Positions 19,416 through 39,868 of a stretch of DNA of 64,000 nt are shown one piece after another. The position numbers and the translations under genes were made by a program. Below the pieces are notes generated by a model that was not told the DNA's origin, searched no databases, and saw only the letters and a program-made list of their open reading frames with translations. Origin of the DNA: Dehalococcoidia bacterium (GTDB taxonomy: Bacteria > Chloroflexota > Dehalococcoidia > Lucifugimonadales > GCA-2712585); assembly GCA_965238215.1 (NCBI GenBank), contig OZ250180.1:1884111-1948110 (forward strand), read 5' to 3'. The stretch's first letter is position 1, and the number at the start of each line of letters is the position of its first letter.

Positions 19416-19995
19416 CCTTCCCCCTCTATGAGGGAAGGTTTGAGCCTGCCCTCGTGAAGACGGGGGATGGGGGTGAAAAACCTCCCCCACTTCTTGTCCT
19501 CGCGGATGCGGGGACCCATCTTCTCTTCCATCCGGTGCCCTCGCACCTCTCTGTTGTTCCCGCGCCGGGAGACTCTTACATAAACGTCATTACTATGAAA
19601 ATAGCCCGTTTCACGCCTAGAAATCCCTTCCCCCTCTATGGGGGAAGGTTTGAGCCTGCCCTCGTGAAGACGGGGGATGGGGGTGAAAAACCTCCCCCAC
19701 TTCTTGTCCTCGCGGATGCGGGGACCCATCTTCTCTTCCATCCGGTGCACTCGCACCTCTCTGTTGTTCCCGCGCCGGGAGACTCTTACATAAACGTCAT
19801 TACTATGAAAATAGCCCGTTTCACGCCTAGAAATCCCTTCCCCCTCTATGGGGGAAGGTTTGAGCCTGCCCTCGTGAAGACGGGGGATGGGGGTGAAAAA
19901 CCTCCCCCACTTCTTGTCCTCGCGGATGCGGGGACCCATCTTCTCTTCCATCCGGTGCACTCGCACCTCTCTGTTGTTCCCGCGGAGGGAGACCT
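19416..19995. repeat. Tandem array of 210-bp composite REP units (about 2.7 copies)
   Basis: CCTTCCCCCTCTATG starts at 19416, 19626 and 19836; the units are almost identical. Confidence 0.95.
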
Positions 19996-20142
19996 TTGTA
20001 TAACTGTCATTCCGGCCCCCGAGCCGGAATCCAGAATCCCATGATTTAGCTATGGCAAAATTTGTCCCACACCGCTATCTGAATGCGTTTCGGTAGTAAT
20101 GCAGTGGTCTCTGGACGCGGGAATCTATCCTCGCCCTGTAGC

Positions 20143-21627
20143 TTACAAACCCGTAATCTCCAGCGTGCTGACCTCCCCCGAGGCCAGGTCCGCCACCCTG
20201 ATGGCGTGGTTGTTCGTGTCTGAGATGTACAGTTTGCCGTGAGCGACCGTAACTCCCCCAGGCTCGAAGAACGTAGCCGCCGCGCCAACGCCGTCGTCGA
20301 AGCCTGCCTGTCCGGAGCCAAGGAAACTCATGGAAGCCCTTGTTTCGGGGTGTACCTTCTTGATCTTGTGGTTATAGGCATCGGCCACGTACAGGACGCC
20401 GTCGTGTAGGCACAGACCCAGGGGATGCTGGAGACGCACCTCCGGCCCCACGCCATCCACGTCGCCGAATTCGAACAGGCCCCGTCCTACGATGGTGGAT
20501 ACCCGTCCGCTGAGCGAGATGTCCGCCATACGCACGGAGCTTGTTTCGCTGTCGACGAAGTAGAGCTTGCTCCCATCGTGGGTGATGCCGCTGGGTTGAG
20601 CCAGCGCCGCCGATCGCATCGGTCCGTCGTGGATGTCCTCTCTCCCGCTTCCTGCGTGGGGAGCGGCACGTGCAGTCAACTCGTCCAACCCCCAGATCTG
20701 ATGGGATCCTGCCATGGCTGAATAAACCGTGCCCCGATAGACCGTAAGGTCCCACGGGGAGTTGAGGCCCACGCTGTTCAGCGAGCCGCCCTGGTTGCCG
20801 AAGGGCCCCTGGCTTCCCGTGCCAGCCATTGTGTCCACGTATCTGTCGTTGAGATGCACCCGGCGGACTGAGTGATTCTCCGTGTCGGCCACGTACAAAA
20901 TGTTGCTCCTGAGCGCCATCCCCTGGGGGTGGTCGAATGCGGCCACCACAAAGTCCCCGTCCTCGAAGCCCGGTGTAACGCCGCCAATCACGTGCGTCAC
21001 CTCCCCCTCCAGGGTCGTTTGCAGAATCCGGTTGTGGTTGGAGTCGGAAATGAAGAGCCGGTCGCGTCGTTCGTCGGCCAACACCTTGCCGGGAAATGAA
21101 AGGGGACCCTCGGGCGTCTGTTCCAGCCTGTAGTCCAGAGGCTGCCGGTCGAGAATATCCGACGAGTCATAATTTAGGACCATCGCAGACAGCAGCTTGT
21201 CGAAGGCATCGTAGGGAATCTCCCCCTCGTGCTTGCCGATTATCTTTCCCTGAGGATCTACAAAGACAAGTGTTGGCCATGCCCTGCAGCCGTAGGACTG
21301 CCAGACCCGAAACTCGCTGTCGTTGATGACGGGATGGCCTATCTCATAGCGCAGAATCGCCATGCGCAGGTTCTCCGTCTCCCGTTCCGCGGGGAATTTG
21401 GCGGAGTGAACGCCAACGACGGCCAGCTCCTTTTCGTACTTCTTCTCCAGCTTCCGCAACTGCGGAAAGACGTGCATGCAGTTAATTCAACAGTAGGTCC
21501 AGAAGTCCAGAATGACTATCTTCCCTTTGAGGTCTTCCATGCTGATGGCTCGCTGGGTGTTGAGCCATGCCAGGCCGTCGGGAAAGTCCGGCGCCGGGGT
21601 GTTTCCGAAGTATGGCGATTGAGTCAT
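20143..21627 (-). CDS. Selenoprotein: thioredoxin-like domain plus NHL repeats (NHLRC2/SOQ1-like), Sec at codon 47
   Basis: ATG 21627 reads MTQSPYFG...LDFWTYC-TGA-INCMH in frame into the 444-aa ORF. The family motif is FWTYCCINC, so TGA (21487-21489) sits at a Cys position. Confidence 0.85.
21451..21468 (-). promoter_or_regulatory. Putative bacterial SECIS hairpin
   Basis: mRNA UUCCGC-AGUU-GCGGAA stem-loop; the loop starts about 25 nt after UGA and has G at loop position 2. Confidence 0.65.
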
Positions 21628-21791
21628 GGGGCTCTCTCTTTCGGGTAGATGTGCTGCACCCATTGTGCACTAGAGAGAAGGCATAATCTACCCTTGGGCT
21701 GTGACACTGGCCCGTGACGGATTGTGCCCTTGTGGGGTAATATCTTAGGGTCAGTCAGAGAATAATCTCCGAGAATTGTCTGAGGCAAAAA

Positions 21792-22514
21792 GTGCGAAGC
21801 AAGGTTTTCAATACCTTTGACGAGGCCGTGGCCGACGTTCCTTCCGGTTCTACCATCATGGTGCCGGGGTTCGCCGGGCCTGGTACGCCGCGCAATCTCA
21901 TTGCTGCTCTGCTTCGACAGGGCGCGCGGAATCTGACCGCCATCTCCAACCATCCCGGCGCTGGCCCCTTCGACAATCGTGTAGACCTGGGAACTCTCAT
22001 CGAGGCCGGACGGGTGCGGAAAGTCGTCTGCTCCTTCACGGCTGCCCCCCATCCGTCCCAGGCCACCCATTTTGAAAAGCTCTACAACAGCGGTAAAGCG
22101 GAGGGGGAACTGGTGCCCCAGGGAACTCTGGCAGAACGCATTCGGGCCGCGGGCGCCGGAATTGGGGCCTTCTATACGCCCACCGGCGTCGGTACGGAGC
22201 TGGCCGAAGGCAAAGAGCATCGTGTCATAGATGGCCGGGAGTATATTCTGGAGTACCCCCTTCACGCCGACTACGCCCTCATTCGAGCCTATCGCAGCGA
22301 CACCTTCGGCAACTTGCAGTATCGTCTGTCCCAGAGGAACTTCAACCCCATCATGGCCATGGCCGCCCGGGTGACCCTGGTGGAGGTCGAGGAGGAGATA
22401 ATTGCCCTGGGAGCCATGGACCCGGATCACGTCCACACCCCGGGCATCTGCGTAGACCGGGTCGTGCACATCCCGGAAGACGGCATAATGGAAGAAGCCA
22501 TTTATCGAGACTGA
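21792..22514 (+). CDS. 3-oxoacid CoA-transferase subunit A
   Basis: IMVPGF.GPG.P, PQGTLAERIRAAGAGI and RNFNP motifs. Confidence 0.9.
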   Translation: MRSKVFNTFDEAVADVPSGSTIMVPGFAGPGTPRNLIAALLRQGARNLTAISNHPGAGPFDNRVDLGTLIEAGRVRKVVCSFTAAPHPSQATHFEKLYNSGKAEGELVPQGTLAERIRAAGAGIGAFYTPTGVGTELAEGKEHRVIDGREYILEYPLHADYALIRAYRSDTFGNLQYRLSQRNFNPIMAMAARVTLVEVEEEIIALGAMDPDHVHTPGICVDRVVHIPEDGIMEEAIYRD

Positions 22515-22575
22515 GCAAGTATGTTATTGTTATATGGCATTATCGACGGAATCATTGAAGCAGGAGCCAAGCGAA

Positions 22576-22758
22576 ATGGCACGAACCACTGAGCCGCAGC
22601 AAGATAGGAAGCGCGCAACGACGCACGACAACGGTGCCACTGCGAACAACGCGCCGAATACCAAATACGTCCCGATACCCGACGACGAGTTCGAGGCGCT
22701 CTTGAAGGAAGGGATTGAGAAGTACGACGCGATATGGAAGAGCTTGGCCGACAAGTAA
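22576..22758 (+). CDS. Putative antitoxin (Phd-like C-terminus)
   Basis: Small ORF with GGAG RBS overlapping the doc gene; ends EKYDAIWKSLADK. Confidence 0.6.
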   Translation: MARTTEPQQDRKRATTHDNGATANNAPNTKYVPIPDDEFEALLKEGIEKYDAIWKSLADK

Positions 22759-23138
22759 AGATTCCCAGCGTCGCACGAATAGTCAGAATCAATCAAGACG
22801 CGATCAGGTTATATGGCGGTCAGTATGTCGGCACTGATAATCTCCGAAGCCGCGAAAGCCTGGAAAACACCCTCTTTCTCATCGGCAACGAAGTCTTTGG
22901 CGTAGACCAATTTCCCACCCTGATGGAGAAAGCCGCCGCCTTGGGCGAGTGCATAATCGCCCGGCACGTCTTCTGGGACGGAAACAAGCGGACGGGCGTA
23001 TATGCCACTTGGATGTTTCTCAAAGCCAATGATGTAATTGTGAATCTAGACGCTTCAGTGGAAGACTTGGCCGTGGGCATCGCCAGCGGCAACGCGGGAT
23101 TTGATGTGTTCCTTGATTGGCTCCACCAACACCAGTGA
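22734..23138 (+). CDS. doc: Doc/Fic-family toxin
   Basis: KAAAL...HVFWDGNKRTG Doc motif. Confidence 0.9.
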   Translation: MEELGRQVKIPSVARIVRINQDAIRLYGGQYVGTDNLRSRESLENTLFLIGNEVFGVDQFPTLMEKAAALGECIIARHVFWDGNKRTGVYATWMFLKANDVIVNLDASVEDLAVGIASGNAGFDVFLDWLHQHQ

Positions 23139-23148
23139 AAGAAAACCC

Positions 23149-23817
23149 ATGTCAGAAAAAAAACGGCTCAACCGACAGCAGATGGCCAACCGGCTGGCCC
23201 AGGAGTTCCAGGACGGCTGGTTGGTCAACCTGGGAATCGGCATTCCCACCCTCTGCTCCAACTACAAGCAGACGGACAAAGAGATAATCTACCACTCGGA
23301 GAACGGCGTCATCGGCTACGGCGCTATCTACCCCAGGGGCGAGGAGGATCGGCACCTGGTCAACGCCGGCGGTCAGTACGTCAGCCTGGTGGCCGGTGCG
23401 TCCATCGTCCACCACGCCGACTCCTTCGCCATCATCCGCAGCGGCATGCTTGACCTGACGGTTATGGGCGCCTACGAGGTGGCCGAGAACGGAGACTTTG
23501 CCAATTGGAAGACCCAGGGCCGTCCCGGTGGGGGCATTGGTGGCGCAATGGACCTGGCCGTGGGGGCGCAGCGGGTGTTCATCGCCATGCAGCACACCCT
23601 CCGCGACGGTACCCCCCGGGTGCTCAAGCGCTGCACCCTGCCCGTGACCGCGAGGGGCGTGGTGAAGCTACTGGTCACGGACCTGGCCCTCTTTGAAGTT
23701 ACGGAAGCGGGCCTGCTTATGCGAGAAATAGCGCCTGGATTTAGCCCCGAGGAGGTGCAGGCGGTGACAGAGGCCCGCATCGTCGTTTCCGAGAACCTAA
23801 AGGAGATGGCGGCTTAG
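23149..23817 (+). CDS. 3-oxoacid CoA-transferase subunit B
   Basis: VNLGIGIPT, HSENG (catalytic Glu) and GGAMDL motifs. Confidence 0.9.
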   Translation: MSEKKRLNRQQMANRLAQEFQDGWLVNLGIGIPTLCSNYKQTDKEIIYHSENGVIGYGAIYPRGEEDRHLVNAGGQYVSLVAGASIVHHADSFAIIRSGMLDLTVMGAYEVAENGDFANWKTQGRPGGGIGGAMDLAVGAQRVFIAMQHTLRDGTPRVLKRCTLPVTARGVVKLLVTDLALFEVTEAGLLMREIAPGFSPEEVQAVTEARIVVSENLKEMAA

Positions 23818-24085: not shown

Positions 24086-24115
24086 CTTGACACAGAATGT
24101 ATCAAGAACTAAGAT
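24086..24115 (+). promoter_or_regulatory. HAIR-like operator (CTTGA-N11-TCAAG) overlapping a TTGACA-N17-TAAGAT promoter
   Basis: Inverted repeat at 24086-24106 fits the HspR operator spacing and lies directly upstream of hspR-grpE-dnaK. Confidence 0.75.
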
Positions 24116-24255
24116 ATGAATATATTAAATACGGCGCTGCCAGAAAAACGGATTCAGTGAGAGAAAGACGAACGAGAATTCAACCGGAAATCCAGCAGGA
24201 GGAGGTCTCAGACACCTTCCCCGGCTCGATTCCTATTAGGCAGAGGCCGGAGCAC

Positions 24256-24678
24256 ATGTCCTTGGAGCCAAAATCCAACCGGACCCGGCGGAGCGCCCCC
24301 CAGGAGCCGCCTCCCAATCGCCGGGAGGTGCAGGGCGTATATATCATAAGCGTTGCCGCCCGGCTCCTTGAGATGCACCCCCAGACCCTGCGAAAATACG
24401 AGCGGCTGGGCATGGTCCGTCCCGTCCGCACCGTGGGAATGCTTCGCCTGTACTCGGAAAGAGACCTGAGGAAACTGCGCCTCATTCGCCACCTGGAGAC
24501 GGACATGGGCATGAACCTCGCCGGCGTCCGCTTCATCCTGGACCTGCTGGAGCAACTGCTTAAGATGCACGAAAGATTAACTGTGAACCAGGACCATCAG
24601 GCCATGAACGCTATCATGGACAGGGAAATAAAGCGTCTCTTCCGGGAGATGAACCTGCCCCTCAGCATGTGGCGATGA
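24256..24678 (+). CDS. hspR: Heat-shock repressor HspR (MerR family)
   Basis: GVYIISVAARLLEMHPQTLRKYER...GMNLAGV. Confidence 0.85.
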   Translation: MSLEPKSNRTRRSAPQEPPPNRREVQGVYIISVAARLLEMHPQTLRKYERLGMVRPVRTVGMLRLYSERDLRKLRLIRHLETDMGMNLAGVRFILDLLEQLLKMHERLTVNQDHQAMNAIMDREIKRLFREMNLPLSMWR

Positions 24679-25265
24679 TGCACGAGAGAGAGAATATGGA
24701 ACGTCGGCTTGAACCCTGCGGGACCGAGGAGAACTTAGGCGAGTCTGCGGAAGCCTCATCGTCCGAGTCGGAAACCGTGTCCCTCCAGATGGAGCAGGAC
24801 CGGCTTGAGAACGCTCTCCGTAGAGCTCAGGCAGACCTCGTGAACTACCGCAACCGCATGGAGACGGAACGGGCCGACCTGCTCAAGTATGGTAACCAGC
24901 GCCTTCTCGGCCGCCTCCTCCCCATCCTCGACGAGCTTACCCTCGCCCTGCAGCAGCCGTCCGACGGCGCATCGTCGGACTCCTGGCTGGAAGGCTTCCG
25001 CCTCATCAATCGAAAGTTCCATGCCTTGCTGGAACTGGAAGGCGTGGAGCGGATAGAGGCCTTGGGCAAACCCTTCGACCCTTCCGAGCACGAAGCCTTG
25101 GCCCAGCAGCAGACCGCTGACAAAGAGGATGGCCAAGTGTTAATGGTGGTCCGCAACGGATATACACTTCATACCCGGTTGCTCCGTCCGGCCCAGGTGA
25201 TTGTTGCCGTCAATAGTGGCCCTTCACCAACAAATCCGGACTCCAACCCGGTCTCAGACAACTAA
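24675..25265 (+). CDS. grpE: Nucleotide exchange factor GrpE
   Basis: [19 protein letters not shown] and GY...RLLRPAQV motifs. Confidence 0.95.
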
Positions 25266-25276
25266 GGAGGAACAAA

Positions 25277-27178
25277 ATGGCAAAGGTCTTGGGAATTGAC
25301 CTGGGTACTACTAATTCCGTGGCCAGCGTGGTGGAGGCCGGTGAACCCGTAGTCGTCGAGAACGCCGAGGGCAACCGGGTTACCCCCTCCGTTGTGGCCG
25401 TAAACCCACGCTCCAGCGAGCGTTACGTGGGCCAAATGGCCAAGCGTCAGGCCGTGACCAACCCGCAGAACACCGTCTTCTCCGTGAAGCGGCTCATGGG
25501 CAGAAAGTACGACGACTCGGAGACCCAGAAGGCAGCTGGATCCCTGCCCTACAAGATTGTTAAGGCCTCCAATGGGGACGCCTACGTTGAAATGGGCGGC
25601 CGCCAGTTCGCTCCGCCTCAGGTCTCTGCAATGATCCTGCAGAAGATGAAGCAGGATGCCGAGGCCAAGCTGGGCGAGGAGATAAGCCAGGCAGTTATCA
25701 CTGTGCCAGCCTATTTCAACGACGCTCAACGCCAGGCCACCAAGGACGCCGGTCAGATAGCCGGTCTCGAGGTTCTGCGTATCATCAACGAGCCGACCGC
25801 AGCCTCCATGGCCTACGGCGTGGGCAAGGACAGCGGCGACAAGACCCTCGCCGTCTACGACCTGGGCGGCGGCACTTTCGACATCTCCATCCTGGAGATG
25901 GGGGACGGCGTCTTCGAGGTGAAGTCCACCAGTGGGGATACCTTTCTCGGCGGCGATGACTTCGACCAACGCATCATGGACTGGCTCATCGATGAATTCC
26001 GCAGTGAAACGGGCATAAACCTCGGCCAAGACCGGATGGCCCTGCAGCGCCTCAGGGAGGCGGCGGAGAAGGCCAAGGTGGAGCTTTCCAGTGTCATGGA
26101 AACGGAGATTAACCTGCCCTTCATCACCGCTGACGCCACGGGTCCGAAGCACTTGCTCAAGCCCCTCAGCCGCAGTAAGTTTCAGCAGCTCGTCGTCGAC
26201 CTGGTCGACAGGACCGACGGGCCATGCCGCCAGGCTATCCGGGACGCCGGCCTCGCCCCTTCCCAAATAGATGAGGTGATTCTCGTGGGCGGCATGACCC
26301 GCGCCCCCCTTATCCAGGAGAAGGTCAAGGCCATCTTCGGCAAAGATCCGAATCGCACCGTTAATCCGGACGAAGCTGTAGCCCTCGGCGCCGCCCTCCA
26401 GGCGGGTGTCCTCCAAGGCGACGTTCAAGACCTTCTGCTTCTGGACGTTACGCCCCTAACCCTGGGGCTCGAGACCCTGGGCGGTGTGGCCACTTCGTTA
26501 ATCTCACGCAACACTACCATCCCCACCTCCAAGAGCGAGTCTTTCACCACCGCCGCAGACAATCAGACCAGTGTGGAGATCCACGTGTTCCAGGGCGAAA
26601 GACCCATGGCCACCGACAACAAGTCCATCGGCCGGTTCATTCTGGACGGCCTCCTCCCCGCTCCTAGGGGGATGCCTCAAATCGAAGTTGCCTTTGACAT
26701 CGACGCCAACGGCATCCTCAGCGTCTCCGCCAAGGACAAGGGTACGGGCAAGGAGCAGAAGATAGTCATCGAGGCCAGTTCCGGCCTCAGCAAGGACCAA
26801 GTGGAAGAGATGGTTCGGGAGGGGGAGGCCCACTCAGAGGAAGACCGTCGCAAGCGGGCCGAGGTTGAAACGCGGAACCAGGCAGACAACCTCGTCTACA
26901 ACACGGAGAAGCTGCTCGCGGAAAGCGCCGACAATGCTCCGGAGGAGCTGAAGCGAGAGGTGGAAGAGAAGCTGGAGTCGTTGAAGGCGGCCATCAAGGC
27001 CAACGACGTCGCCGGTATGCAGACTGCAATCCCCGGCTTGAACGAGGCGCTGCAAAAGCTGGGTCAGGCCGTGTACGCCCAGTCCGGCGGCCCCGGCGGC
27101 CCGCAGCCGCCGGGCGATGCACCCCCCAACGATCCTGACCCGGGAACCGTTGAGGGTGAATTCAAAGAAGTAAACTAA
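25277..27178 (+). CDS. dnaK: Chaperone DnaK
   Basis: [17 protein letters not shown] and DLGGGTFD motifs. Confidence 0.98.
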
Positions 27179-37416: not shown

Positions 37417-38693
37417 AGCTGGACGACGCCGTTCTTCAACAGGTGCTGCGACGGGGCGTGGTGGAGATAATTGTGGAGGAGGAGTTCGTTCGCCTCCTCC
37501 AGGAGGGCAAACCACTCAGGCTAAAGATGGGTTTCGACCCCAGCAGGCCTGACATCCACCTTGGCCACGTTATTGGCCTTCGCAAGCTGCGACAGCTTCA
37601 GGAACTTGGCCACAAAGTCGTTCTCATCGTGGGGGACTGGACGGCCCAAATTGGCGATCCCAGCGGCGAGTCCGTCACCCGTCCCATGCTCACCCACGAG
37701 CAGGTCATGGCCAACGCCCAATCTTACCTCCAACAGTTCTTCAGGGTGGTGGACGAGGACCGGACAGAAACGGTGCTCCAGAGCGAGTGGTTCGGCAAGT
37801 TCACCCTCGCCACCGTTCTGGACCTCACCCGCCGCTTCACCCTGGCCCAATTCCTAGAGCGGGACGATTTCGCTCGCCGCTATAAGGCCAACCGCCCCAT
37901 AGCCATAACCGAATTCCTCTATCCCCTGCTCCAGGCCTACGACTCCGTAGCCATCCGGTCCGACGTGGAGTTTGGCGGCACGGACCAGAAGTTCAACCTG
38001 CTAGTGGGCCGCCAGCTTCAGTCAATGATGGGCCAGAAGCCTCAGCAGTGCTTTCTCATGCCACTGCTGGTGGGCACCGACGGCGTACAGAAGATGAGCA
38101 AGAGCCTGGACAACTACGTTGCCGTGGATGATCCTCCCCTCGAGATGTTCGGCAAGCTCATGTCCATCGCCGACAATCTCATGCTGGACTATTTCGAATA
38201 CCTGACGGACGTTTCACCCCCGGAACTGGACGAAATGCGGAGGGCCATCGAGACCGACTCGGTGAACCCCATGGACCTGAAGAAGCGGCTGGCCGCCGAG
38301 GTGACTAGCCAGTTCTATCCCCATGACGATGTTCTGGACGCCCGGACCCACTTCGAGCGCACGGTGCAGCGTCGACAGCTCCCCCAAGACATCCCCCAAG
38401 TTGGCTTCCGAATTTCCCCCTCTGTCGTGTGCGTCTACCCGATTGACACATCGGGCGAGACCAGGCAGATAAGCCCCTCCGAGCAGCGCGACCGGGTTGC
38501 CGCAGTCGACCTGATTTGGGCCGCCGGGCTGGCCAAGTCTAAAGGTGAGGCCAAGCGCCTTCTCTCCCAGTCGGCGGTGGAAGTAGACCAGCGGCGGCAC
38601 CGCGAACCGTGGATTCAGCTTCGAGACGGCGCCGTCATACGGGTGGGCCGACGCCGGTTCGCTCGCTTGGCGAATCTGGATGAACGCCAGTAA
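37413..38693 (+). CDS. tyrS: Tyrosine-tRNA ligase
   Basis: GFDPS.PDIHLGH, YPLLQAYD, KMSKS and a C-terminal S4 domain. Confidence 0.97.
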   Translation: MKLDDAVLQQVLRRGVVEIIVEEEFVRLLQEGKPLRLKMGFDPSRPDIHLGHVIGLRKLRQLQELGHKVVLIVGDWTAQIGDPSGESVTRPMLTHEQVMANAQSYLQQFFRVVDEDRTETVLQSEWFGKFTLATVLDLTRRFTLAQFLERDDFARRYKANRPIAITEFLYPLLQAYDSVAIRSDVEFGGTDQKFNLLVGRQLQSMMGQKPQQCFLMPLLVGTDGVQKMSKSLDNYVAVDDPPLEMFGKLMSIADNLMLDYFEYLTDVSPPELDEMRRAIETDSVNPMDLKKRLAAEVTSQFYPHDDVLDARTHFERTVQRRQLPQDIPQVGFRISPSVVCVYPIDTSGETRQISPSEQRDRVAAVDLIWAAGLAKSKGEAKRLLSQSAVEVDQRRHREPWIQLRDGAVIRVGRRRFARLANLDERQ

Positions 38694-38758
38694 TGAAGAC
38701 AAAGATATGTCCCCGCTGGGGGCGGTTTCAAACCGTCCTTGCCGGTTAAGGAGGCGAC

Positions 38759-39868
38759 GTGAAAATCCCCAAGCAGAACCTTAGAATTCCGGGCCCGACG
38801 CCCTGCCCGGATGAAATCATGGAGCTCATGAGCAGCCCCATGATCAACCACCGTGGGCCGGAGTTCAAGGAGCTTCTGTACAGCGTTACCGACCGGCTCA
38901 AGCGCGTCTTCCAGACCGGCAACGATCTTTACATCCTCACCGCCTCCGGCACCGGAGCACTGGAAGCCTCTCTGGTCAACACCCTCTCCCCCGGCGACGA
39001 GGTAATAGCCGCCGTCACCGGTTCCTTTGGCCGCCGCTACGCCGACATGGCCGAGGCTGTGGGCGCTTCCGTCACCCGCCTGGATTTTGAGTGGGGGACC
39101 GCCGTTGACGTTCCCACAATTCGCCAGGCCCTCGAAGCCCAGCCGGACGTAAAAGCCGTTCTCGTCACCCACAACGAGACCTCCACCGGCGTCATCAATG
39201 ACTTGGAAGCCATCGCTGCCGTGGTCAAGGGGGAATTCGATAAACTCCTTCTGGTGGACGCCGTCAGCAGCCTCGGCTGCGTATCCCTTCCCGTAGACCG
39301 GTGGCGCTGCGACGTTGTCGCCACCGCCTCCCAGAAAGGTTTCCTTACTCCCCCTGGCCTCTCTTTCATCAGCTTCGGCCCGGGGGCTTGGGAAGCCCGC
39401 AAAAGCGCAACGGCCACCAGCTTCTACTTCGACCTCGCGACCGCCCAGACCTACCTGGAGCGGGGACAGACGCCCTTCACCCCCAATCTGCCGCTCTTCT
39501 ACGCCCTTGACCGCTCTCTGGACGTTTTGCTGGACGAAGGGTTGGAGGAGACCTACACCCGCCACGCCTACTTTGGAGATATGACCCGCCGTGGCGTTAA
39601 GGCTCTCGGTCTCCAGCTCCTTGCCGACGACCATTGCGCCTCCAACACCGTTACCGCCGTCCGCATTCCGTCAAGCATCGACGCTAAGGCTCTGGTAAAC
39701 ACCCTTCGTTTAGAGCACGGCGTGGTCGTGGGCGGCGGCTTGGGCGAGCTCGAGGGAAAAATTATCCGCATCGGGCACCTGGGCGCCGTGTCGGAGCCGG
39801 ATATCGTTGACTGCCTGGAAGCCCTTGGCAAAACCCTAGAGTCGATGGGCTTTCGAGCCGGAGATTAG
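38759..39868 (+). CDS. Alanine-glyoxylate/serine-pyruvate aminotransferase (class V)
   Basis: LRIPGPT, HNETSTG, DAVSS, SQKG and RIGHLG motifs. Confidence 0.92.
   Translation: MKIPKQNLRIPGPTPCPDEIMELMSSPMINHRGPEFKELLYSVTDRLKRVFQTGNDLYILTASGTGALEASLVNTLSPGDEVIAAVTGSFGRRYADMAEAVGASVTRLDFEWGTAVDVPTIRQALEAQPDVKAVLVTHNETSTGVINDLEAIAAVVKGEFDKLLLVDAVSSLGCVSLPVDRWRCDVVATASQKGFLTPPGLSFISFGPGAWEARKSATATSFYFDLATAQTYLERGQTPFTPNLPLFYALDRSLDVLLDEGLEETYTRHAYFGDMTRRGVKALGLQLLADDHCASNTVTAVRIPSSIDAKALVNTLRLEHGVVVGGGLGELEGKIIRIGHLGAVSEPDIVDCLEALGKTLESMGFRAGD

Follow-up and report, generated by a model that had tools for sequence, protein, structure and literature searches.

A conserved UGA codon predicted to encode selenocysteine in the redox motif of a bacterial thioredoxin-NHL protein

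Introduction

Does an in-frame TGA lying exactly on a redox-active position end a gene, or is it decoded as selenocysteine (Sec)? This question is raised by a locus on the minus strand (positions 20143 to 21627) of a 64,000-nucleotide stretch of contig OZ250180.1 from a Dehalococcoidia bacterium (assembly GCA_965238215.1, contig positions 1,884,111 to 1,948,110), hereafter called the window. An earlier inspection of the letters, referred to below as the sequence-only reading, had taken the locus for a hidden selenoprotein in which a thioredoxin-like (Trx-like) domain is followed by NHL repeats, as in plant SOQ1 and human NHLRC2. SOQ1 regulates photoprotection, while NHLRC2 is mutated in FINCA disease. 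In thioredoxin-fold enzymes the N-terminal residue of the CxxC motif is the attacking nucleophile, and a natural Cys-to-Sec exchange is a classical marker of a redox-active nucleophile.

The comparisons presented here argue that the UGA at codon 47 encodes Sec in a conserved selenoprotein gene, a reading to which a probability of about 0.93 can be attached. The Sec machinery of the genome, the conservation of the TGA and a hairpin of the selenocysteine insertion sequence (SECIS) type all support the earlier proposal. In mechanism the gene is an ordinary UxxC selenoprotein gene and its recoding is textbook.

Gene Structure and Annotation

The coding sequence runs on the minus strand from an ATG at 21627 to a TAA at 20143-20145 (20143..21627; 494 residues plus the TAA). 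The single internal stop of this frame is a TGA at codon 47 (21487..21489, minus strand), which takes the place of the second Cys in FWTYC-C-INC, so that the motif reads FWTYC-U-INC and residue 47 would be the first position of a U-I-N-C redox motif. Read-through of this codon restores a 494-residue protein made of a thioredoxin-like domain and an NHL propeller, exactly at the place and with the length that the sequence-only reading had given. Elsewhere in the window TGA is a normal stop and terminates 9 of the 34 stop-to-stop frames of at least 300 codons.

When translated with table 11, the locus appears in the list of open reading frames (ORFs) as a truncated 444-residue ORF from Met51 (20143..21477, minus strand), devoid of the redox motif, together with a 58-residue upstream ORF terminating at the TGA. 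Public proteins follow the same pattern: the best 20 matches are 444-447 residues long (65-92% identity, 90% of the query covered), and the record P0002 begins at Met51 (MHVFPQL...). Two of the closest public records carry the names "sugar lactone lactonase YvrE" and "DNA-binding beta-propeller fold protein YncE". Public gene calls thus begin at Met51 and cut off the active-site motif, which makes the public annotation of the gene wrong; the sequence-only reading had foreseen that standard annotation would miss it.

Conservation of the UGA Codon

Among 40 relatives ranging from the same genus to the same order, all 26 full-length orthologue rows (52-100% identity) contain exactly one in-frame TGA. 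In the 20 of these 26 loci that were read, the TGA stands at the same codon of FWTYC*[I/V]NC and the upstream frame is open and conserved (20/20).

The phylum was covered by an even sample of 401 Chloroflexota genomes, with an orthologue threshold of E <= 1e-80. An orthologue can be found in 79 of them, and of the 80 rows obtained, 64 have one TGA and 16 have none. Apart from the row of the window genome itself, 63 rows were flagged in this way, 60 of which were fetched and read; the three left out are those of G267 and G185, which are unpublished genomes, and a second copy in G259. The reading was made row by row because a one-TGA flag does not always denote a Sec codon: in G053 the flagged TGA is a stop upstream of a CCINC form, and this candidate was rejected. 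Intact Sec forms were found in 58 of the 60 fetched loci, which with the window genome gives a verified intact Sec form in 59 of the 401 genomes. In G047 (L183, G047:C88) the TGA is present at the motif and an additional base immediately before it throws the reading out of frame (...FWT / ...YS*INC), which is either a sequencing error or the sign of a decaying copy. These tallies include the unpublished genomes G267, G078 and G185 (and, for the selA tally given below, also G213 and G312); dropping them alters no conclusion.

Taking all fetched loci together, the same codon is TGA in 83 and TGC or TGT in 76, three of the 83 being records fetched twice. The Sec-form motifs are CUINC (74 loci), GUINC (6), AUINC (1), CUVNC (1) and CUIDC (1), and the Cys-form motifs CCINC (59), GCINC (16) and GCVNC (1). 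In the 76 Cys-form loci, in SOQ1 and, according to the motif description in PMC6107167, in NHLRC2, the residue that stands opposite U47 is the second Cys of CCINC. The UGA is therefore aligned with a conserved redox-active Cys, and both the UGA and the frames flanking it are conserved in orthologues. Since GUINC and AUINC variants exist, the first Cys of "CC" is dispensable and the invariant pair is U/C-x-x-C. The alignment of Cys and TGA across homologues that the sequence-only reading had called for thus places TGA at one codon in the relatives and Cys elsewhere, and the UxxC redox centre which it had suggested is strengthened by the natural G-U-INC and A-U-INC variants.

Two Sec-form copies with identical scores, about 5 kb apart and in opposite orientation, can be found in G259 (G259:C157:31139-32611 and 37858-39330); they represent either an inverted duplication or an assembly repeat.

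Independent data were sought in the contigs of four public runs, compared over 20100-21700. X20 record 30, a contig from a metatranscriptome library, matches the window over 21435-21548 with 0 differences. It has no fewer than 31 letters to either side of the TGA and takes in the hairpin described below as well. A second contig (X2 record 22), with 6 letters on one side of the TGA, was not counted as bridging. The summed contig depth peaks at 21450-21503, contig depth being a quantity that cannot rank the parts of a gene.

The SECIS Hairpin

Downstream of the TGA the transcript would contain the hairpin UUUCCGC-AGUU-GCGGAAG (21451..21468, minus strand), which starts 18 nucleotides (nt) after the UGA and occupies nt 22-39 counted from the U of UGA. 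Its stem consists of 7 base pairs (nt 22-28 with 33-39) and its 4-nt loop AGUU begins 25 nt after the UGA, with G in second position followed by U; a G-containing 4-nt-loop hairpin about 25 nt downstream is what had been noticed from the sequence. The published bacterial SECIS model (PMC13188914, section 5) comprises an apical loop of 3-9 nt on a stem of 4-16 base pairs, a G at loop position 1 or 2 with, in most cases, G or U as the next base, a distance of 16-37 nt from UGA to loop, and a minimum free energy (MFE) of -7.5 kcal/mol or lower. The window hairpin, whose energy is -8.8 kcal/mol alone (MFE -11.8 kcal/mol), satisfies all four published constraints (PMC13188914).

Comparison of distinct sequences separates the two forms of the gene. 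All seven pairs are kept in 52 of 60 Sec-form sequences and at least six in 55 of 60, as against at least six in 0 of 69 Cys-form sequences; over nt 16-48 the mean MFE is -11.6 kcal/mol in Sec forms vs -4.1 kcal/mol in Cys forms. The loop G (G30) is invariant, and 54 of the 60 Sec-form sequences share the loop AGUU. In the alignment of these 60 sequences 95% of the cells are paired, with compensatory changes in four of the seven pairs (32 cells), and the covariation score of 0.285 compares with 0.136 for shuffled alignments (0/500 reach it) and with at most 0.096 for slid partners. The peptide encoded over the hairpin is PQLRK in Sec forms vs PDLKY or PELKK in Cys forms, so that the RNA requirement of the hairpin is visible in the encoded protein. 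What had been called SECIS-like is, on these grounds, a conserved and covarying element that conforms to the published model.

Selenocysteine Machinery and Co-occurrence

The window genome is a single contig of 3.06 Mb and is 96.7% complete. A tRNA-Sec (74.7 bits; anticodon TCA according to ARAGORN) can be found together with selA (558 bits), selB (328 bits, plus its C-terminal part) and selD (380 bits to TIGR00476; G000:C1:1135943-1136863), the matches to the three protein genes all being above curated cut-offs. All four components whose presence the sequence-only reading had asked to be checked are hence present. The selD gene has one in-frame TGA of its own and probably encodes a Sec-containing selenophosphate synthetase. 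A second Trx-like match containing a TGA (C1:2169707-2170117) turned out to be a WCPPC gene of the ResA/CcmG-like type, in which the TGA is the stop of the gene; it is not a selenoprotein.

A comparison by hand of the list of TGA flags with that of selA (401 genomes) indicates that selA is present in 308 of the 401 sampled Chloroflexota genomes and in 62 of the 63 flagged with one TGA. The exception without selA is G368 (93% complete, 160 contigs), in which a tRNA-Sec-like match of 96 nt and 58 bits was obtained. As judged from these gene inventories, the Sec form appears to be used only where Sec machinery is present.

The two genomes without TGA that lack selA are G396 and G412. G396, which belongs to the same order as the window genome and is 96% complete (60 contigs), has a no-TGA form of the gene and a tRNA-Sec match of 73.1 bits (94 nt), and selA fails to match there at a threshold as loose as E <= 1e-5. 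The Sec trait may be in course of loss in this genome.

Domain Organization and Known Relatives

In the restored protein, Pfam recognizes Thioredoxin_8 (1.6e-14), AhpC-TSA and Redoxin at residues 12-138, and then NHL repeats (1.3e-23). The thioredoxin-like domain of the Trx8/redoxin type covers residues ~12-146 (21190..21594, minus strand) and includes C46-U47-I-N-C50 as well as a WPT cis-proline region; the NHL-repeat beta-propeller covers residues ~174-493 (20149..21108, minus strand). The best match among solved structures is the lumenal region of Arabidopsis SOQ1 (7djj, E = 9e-133, residues 10-493), and human NHLRC2 (6gc1) matches over residues 11-491 with E = 4.6e-113. The motif FWTYCCINCMHV is shared in the SOQ1 alignment, identical apart from U, and the WPT region aligns with the WPT of SOQ1. 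Residues 174-493 align end to end with the SOQ1 NHL-CTD fragment 7djm (3.3e-78), where CTD denotes the C-terminal beta-stranded domain, and with the NHLRC2 propeller 6g7w (3.6e-66). No NCBIfam model reaches its cut-off on the window protein, the best being ResA with 54.5 bits against a cut-off of 170.

As in the NHLRC2/SOQ1 family, a Trx8-type domain with a motif at the CC(I/V)NC position (here C-U-I-N-C) and a cis-proline is followed directly by what is, by sequence, a six-bladed NHL beta-propeller. By these alignments, the window protein is predicted to be a two-domain orthologue of the Trx-NHL core common to plant SOQ1 and human NHLRC2. The CTD of NHLRC2 and SOQ1 is lacking, as the 494 residues extend no farther than the propeller. 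Each of the 81 complete Sec-form frames stops 430-464 residues past U and consequently has no CTD, and frames running more than 560 residues past U or C number 0 of 81 among complete Sec forms vs 43 of 73 among Cys forms. The CTD is not a defining feature of the bacterial members. A 145-residue CTD query taken from a long-form homologue, the one query with which the genome was searched for a separate CTD-like gene, found no match, an empty result that shows nothing. The long-form homologue P0029 has a signal-like hydrophobic N-terminal segment and an extra C-terminal domain with a Cys pair. In the sequence of the window protein, by comparison, no signal peptide, hydrophobic N-terminus, transmembrane segment or HAD domain can be found, and the lack of a hydrophobic N-terminal stretch suggests a cytoplasmic location.

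Several features of the relatives bear on function. SOQ1 resembles the window protein in its Trx-like domain and NHL beta-propeller, in its identical FWTYC-C/U-INCMHV motif and in its WPT cis-proline region. In the parts of the SOQ1 preprint that deal with the redox centres, C431 and C434, the motif's second and third Cys, are described as a redox pair with a midpoint potential (Em) of -274 mV, the Trx domain as handing electrons to the C1006/C1012 pair of the C-terminal domain, and the lumenal fragment as having methionine sulfoxide reductase activity on the client LCNP (10.1101/2024.11.01.621559). Going by that account, SOQ1 differs in having Cys instead of Sec, in being lumenal and anchored to the membrane, in carrying a HAD domain at its N-terminus, and in possessing the CTD which accepts the Trx electrons and bears the reported methionine sulfoxide reductase activity, a domain that is missing from the window protein. 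NHLRC2 is likewise described as a cytosolic protein with a Trx-like domain and a six-bladed NHL propeller, its CCINC lying at the N-terminus of helix alpha-1 in a cleft facing the propeller (PMC6107167, structural description); it differs by a Cys at the Sec position and by the extra beta-stranded domain at its C-terminus. The SOQ1 alignment and the NHLRC2 paper, as far as its description of the motif goes (PMC6107167), thus confirm that proteins of this type use CCINC. Residues 12-152 also match the C-terminal Trx domain of DipZ/DsbD (PDB 2hyx, 5cyy) with E ~6e-21, a domain to which the authors of SOQ1 also liken its Trx domain in the corresponding part of their preprint (10.1101/2024.11.01.621559). 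Unlike the window protein, DsbD-type proteins are membrane electron shuttles without a propeller, and no such context surrounds the window gene.

Alternative Explanations

Three explanations in which codon 47 is not a regular Sec codon have to be weighed against the Sec reading. The TGA could be a real stop in a decayed or split gene with a functional 444-residue product from Met51, consisting of the propeller and a crippled Trx domain, the upstream 46 codons being an untranslated remnant or a separate small peptide. Gene callers do read the locus that way and an ATG lies four codons past the TGA, yet the upstream 46 codons are in frame, are conserved at the protein level to 44-62% overall identity with the start region retained, and align with the Trx domain of SOQ1 from residue 10. 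In Thermomicrobium-type and many other Sec forms, Leu, Ile or Val follows INC, which leaves no Met51 for a restart. Nor would a remnant retain a covarying hairpin or be nearly confined to genomes with selA (62/63), and a real stop is accordingly regarded as very improbable. No more credit can be given to a UGA read through mostly by a non-Sec tRNA, be it a near-cognate Cys or Trp tRNA or a mixture dependent on selenium supply, from which a full-length protein would result that is not always a selenoprotein. A conserved hairpin of the SelB type that has an invariant loop G and stands at the canonical distance is specific to Sec insertion, the genome contains the full Sec machinery, and TGA otherwise serves as a stop in the window; these facts outweigh the observation that in most other phyla Cys is functional at this position, and Sec is here the residue predicted from the sequence. 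As for a sequencing or assembly error, one base change would restore Cys and the true codon would then be TGC or TGT. The same TGA is found in 83 loci fetched from separate assemblies, including the three fetched twice, and the independent-run contig identical over 21435-21548 shows TGA, where TGC or TGT in reads would have spoken for an error. Because that contig carries the TGA, an artefact of assembly peculiar to the window genome is excluded, and this explanation is effectively refuted.

Other points weigh against the Sec reading itself. The 63-nt segment containing the hairpin folds no better than shuffled sequences (z = 0.19; 103 of 200 shuffles as good), and since the folding energy by itself is unremarkable, the argument for a SECIS rests on comparison of sequences. 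Five of the 60 distinct Sec-form sequences are off the exact register of the hairpin: four Thermomicrobium-type sequences have an 8-base-pair stem shifted by one base with the loop GUU, and explain most of the unpaired cells, and L126 is a bulged variant. The gene for SelA is also present in 14 of the 16 Chloroflexota genomes that have the orthologue without an in-frame TGA, and Cys-form genomes of Bryobacterales, Ignavibacteriales and Armatimonadota carry it as well, so that Sec is not obligatory where the machinery exists. The evidence from reads consists of contigs and is no proof of transcription; given that DNA can occur in such libraries, the metatranscriptome contig is a weak hint that the gene is transcribed. 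Finally, the gene lacks the CTD that receives the Trx electrons in SOQ1, and because of this absence the relay mechanism of SOQ1 is not transferable as a whole to the window protein.

Proposed Mechanism

Under the Sec reading, SelB with Sec-tRNA(Sec) would bind the hairpin beginning 18 nt past the UGA and insert Sec at codon 47, by which the redox motif would become C-U-I-N-C, with U-x-x-C replacing C-x-x-C. By analogy with thioredoxin-fold oxidoreductases, Sec47 is expected at the N-terminal end of helix alpha-1 and inside the cleft that faces the propeller, where it could act as the attacking nucleophile on an oxidized protein substrate held by the propeller. Cys50 would resolve the resulting selenenylsulfide, and the oxidized enzyme would be re-reduced by a cytoplasmic thiol system.

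As the Sec forms are all short, without signal and without a CTD relay, it can be hypothesized further that they are stand-alone cytoplasmic protein-repair reductases, in which the selenol of residue 47 would attack an oxidized client, held by the propeller, at methionine sulfoxide or cysteine sulfenate. This proposal is speculative and rather unlikely to be right in this specific form. If true, such an enzyme would do in one centre what SOQ1 reportedly does by a relay from Trx domain to CTD.

Distribution and History

Loci nearly identical to that of the window belong to Dehalococcoidia metagenome-assembled genomes, and Sec forms can also be found in Thermomicrobium sp. CFH 73360 and "Bacterium HR28". 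In other phyla, Cys (CCINC or GCINC) occupies the Sec position; among 301 sampled Acidobacteriota genomes, 28 have an orthologue, all 28 without an in-frame stop. In a FastTree phylogeny of 131 loci, all 63 Sec rows lie inside one clade of 69 rows (local support 97), which includes six Cys rows as well: that of G053, those of a Chloroflexota group of four, and that of one Armatimonadota locus. The tree requires at least 4 Sec/Cys changes vs 43.9 for shuffled labels. It is unrooted and unevenly sampled: the loci of the phylum were chosen for TGA, and the outgroup was collected by a pattern search for which one of the patterns was a peptide containing Cys, by which Sec forms were under-sampled. 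A single Cys-to-Sec origin with later reversions is, for these two reasons, a parsimonious reading of the tree and not a demonstrated one.

Genomic Neighborhood

The neighbors of the gene in the window are D-glutamate cyclase-like genes, CoA-transferase subunits, a Fic/DOC gene, a MerR-type regulator, GrpE and DnaK. All the neighboring genes listed lie on the opposite strand and none of them points to a partner or a substrate; in the genomic-context part of the NHLRC2 paper, no conserved neighbors are reported in 7 bacterial genomes (PMC6107167).

Directly 3' of the selenoprotein gene, a 210-bp tandem repeat (19416-19993; 2.8 copies, 98% identical) is crossed by long ORFs on both strands (185 and 196 residues). 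On the other side, a Fic/DOC-family gene (22734-23138, plus strand) is preceded by an overlapping ORF of 74 residues (22534-22758), and the two sit between the genes of two CoA-transferase subunits (21792-22514 and 23101-23817). The pair at 22534-23138 looks like a toxin-antitoxin system of the Phd/Doc type inserted into an operon. Farther on, 24097-27178 (plus strand) is an ordinary heat-shock cluster with a MerR-family (HspR-like) regulator, GrpE and DnaK.

Relation to Known Selenoproteins

The gene is similar to those of the bacterial thioredoxin-fold UxxC selenoproteins, in which Sec replaces the N-terminal Cys of CxxC and the SECIS follows closely on the 3' side of the UGA, within the coding sequence. 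Families of this kind in Table 1 of PMC13188914 are Sec-thioredoxin, Sec-glutaredoxin, "Prx-like thiol:disulfide oxidoreductase", "Thiol:disulfide interchange protein" and "Redoxin family protein". By the descriptions given in the catalogue sections of that 2026 review, none of its 119 families and subfamilies has an NHL propeller or is NHLRC2/SOQ1-like, and the terms "NHL", "propeller", "Chloroflex" and "Dehalococc" each occur 0 times in its full text (PMC13188914). An overlap with its generic entry "Redoxin family protein" (PF08534, UxxC), whose representatives are HEU0032618.1 and MBA3499694.1, may exist, the comparison being one of descriptions as they stand in that table. An entry "Thioredoxin family protein (COG1225)" with 4 sequences from 4 organisms, in the supplement of a 2016 ISME paper, might or might not be the Trx-NHL family.

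The suggestion, included in the sequence-only reading, that Sec-containing NHL proteins had been noted in marine metagenomes found no support: "NHL" occurs 0 times in the 2022 review, in the Global Ocean Sampling (GOS) paper and in the 2016 ISME paper with its supplements, as in the 2026 review. In the open-access literature and preprints, no paper was found that links NHL, NHLRC2 or SOQ1 to selenocysteine. In the passages on CCINC of the SOQ1 preprint and the NHLRC2 paper there is no mention of Sec, "selen" in the latter referring to selenomethionine. The Trx-NHL Sec family thus appears to be missing by name from these published selenoprotein catalogues.

Significance

The recoding mechanism being already known, the window contributes a further instance of it, together with a census at the level of the phylum and a tree. 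The Sec form is common in Chloroflexota, yet gene callers remove its redox centre. As the family appears to be uncatalogued by name and has no NCBIfam model, selenoprotein counts for Chloroflexota are probably too low. With regard to the Cys-containing relatives, the exchange marks the second Cys of CCINC, the first being dispensable, which is a testable prediction for NHLRC2 and SOQ1. If the stand-alone reductase proposal holds, the exchange would mark this second Cys as the catalytic nucleophile throughout the family, including human NHLRC2.

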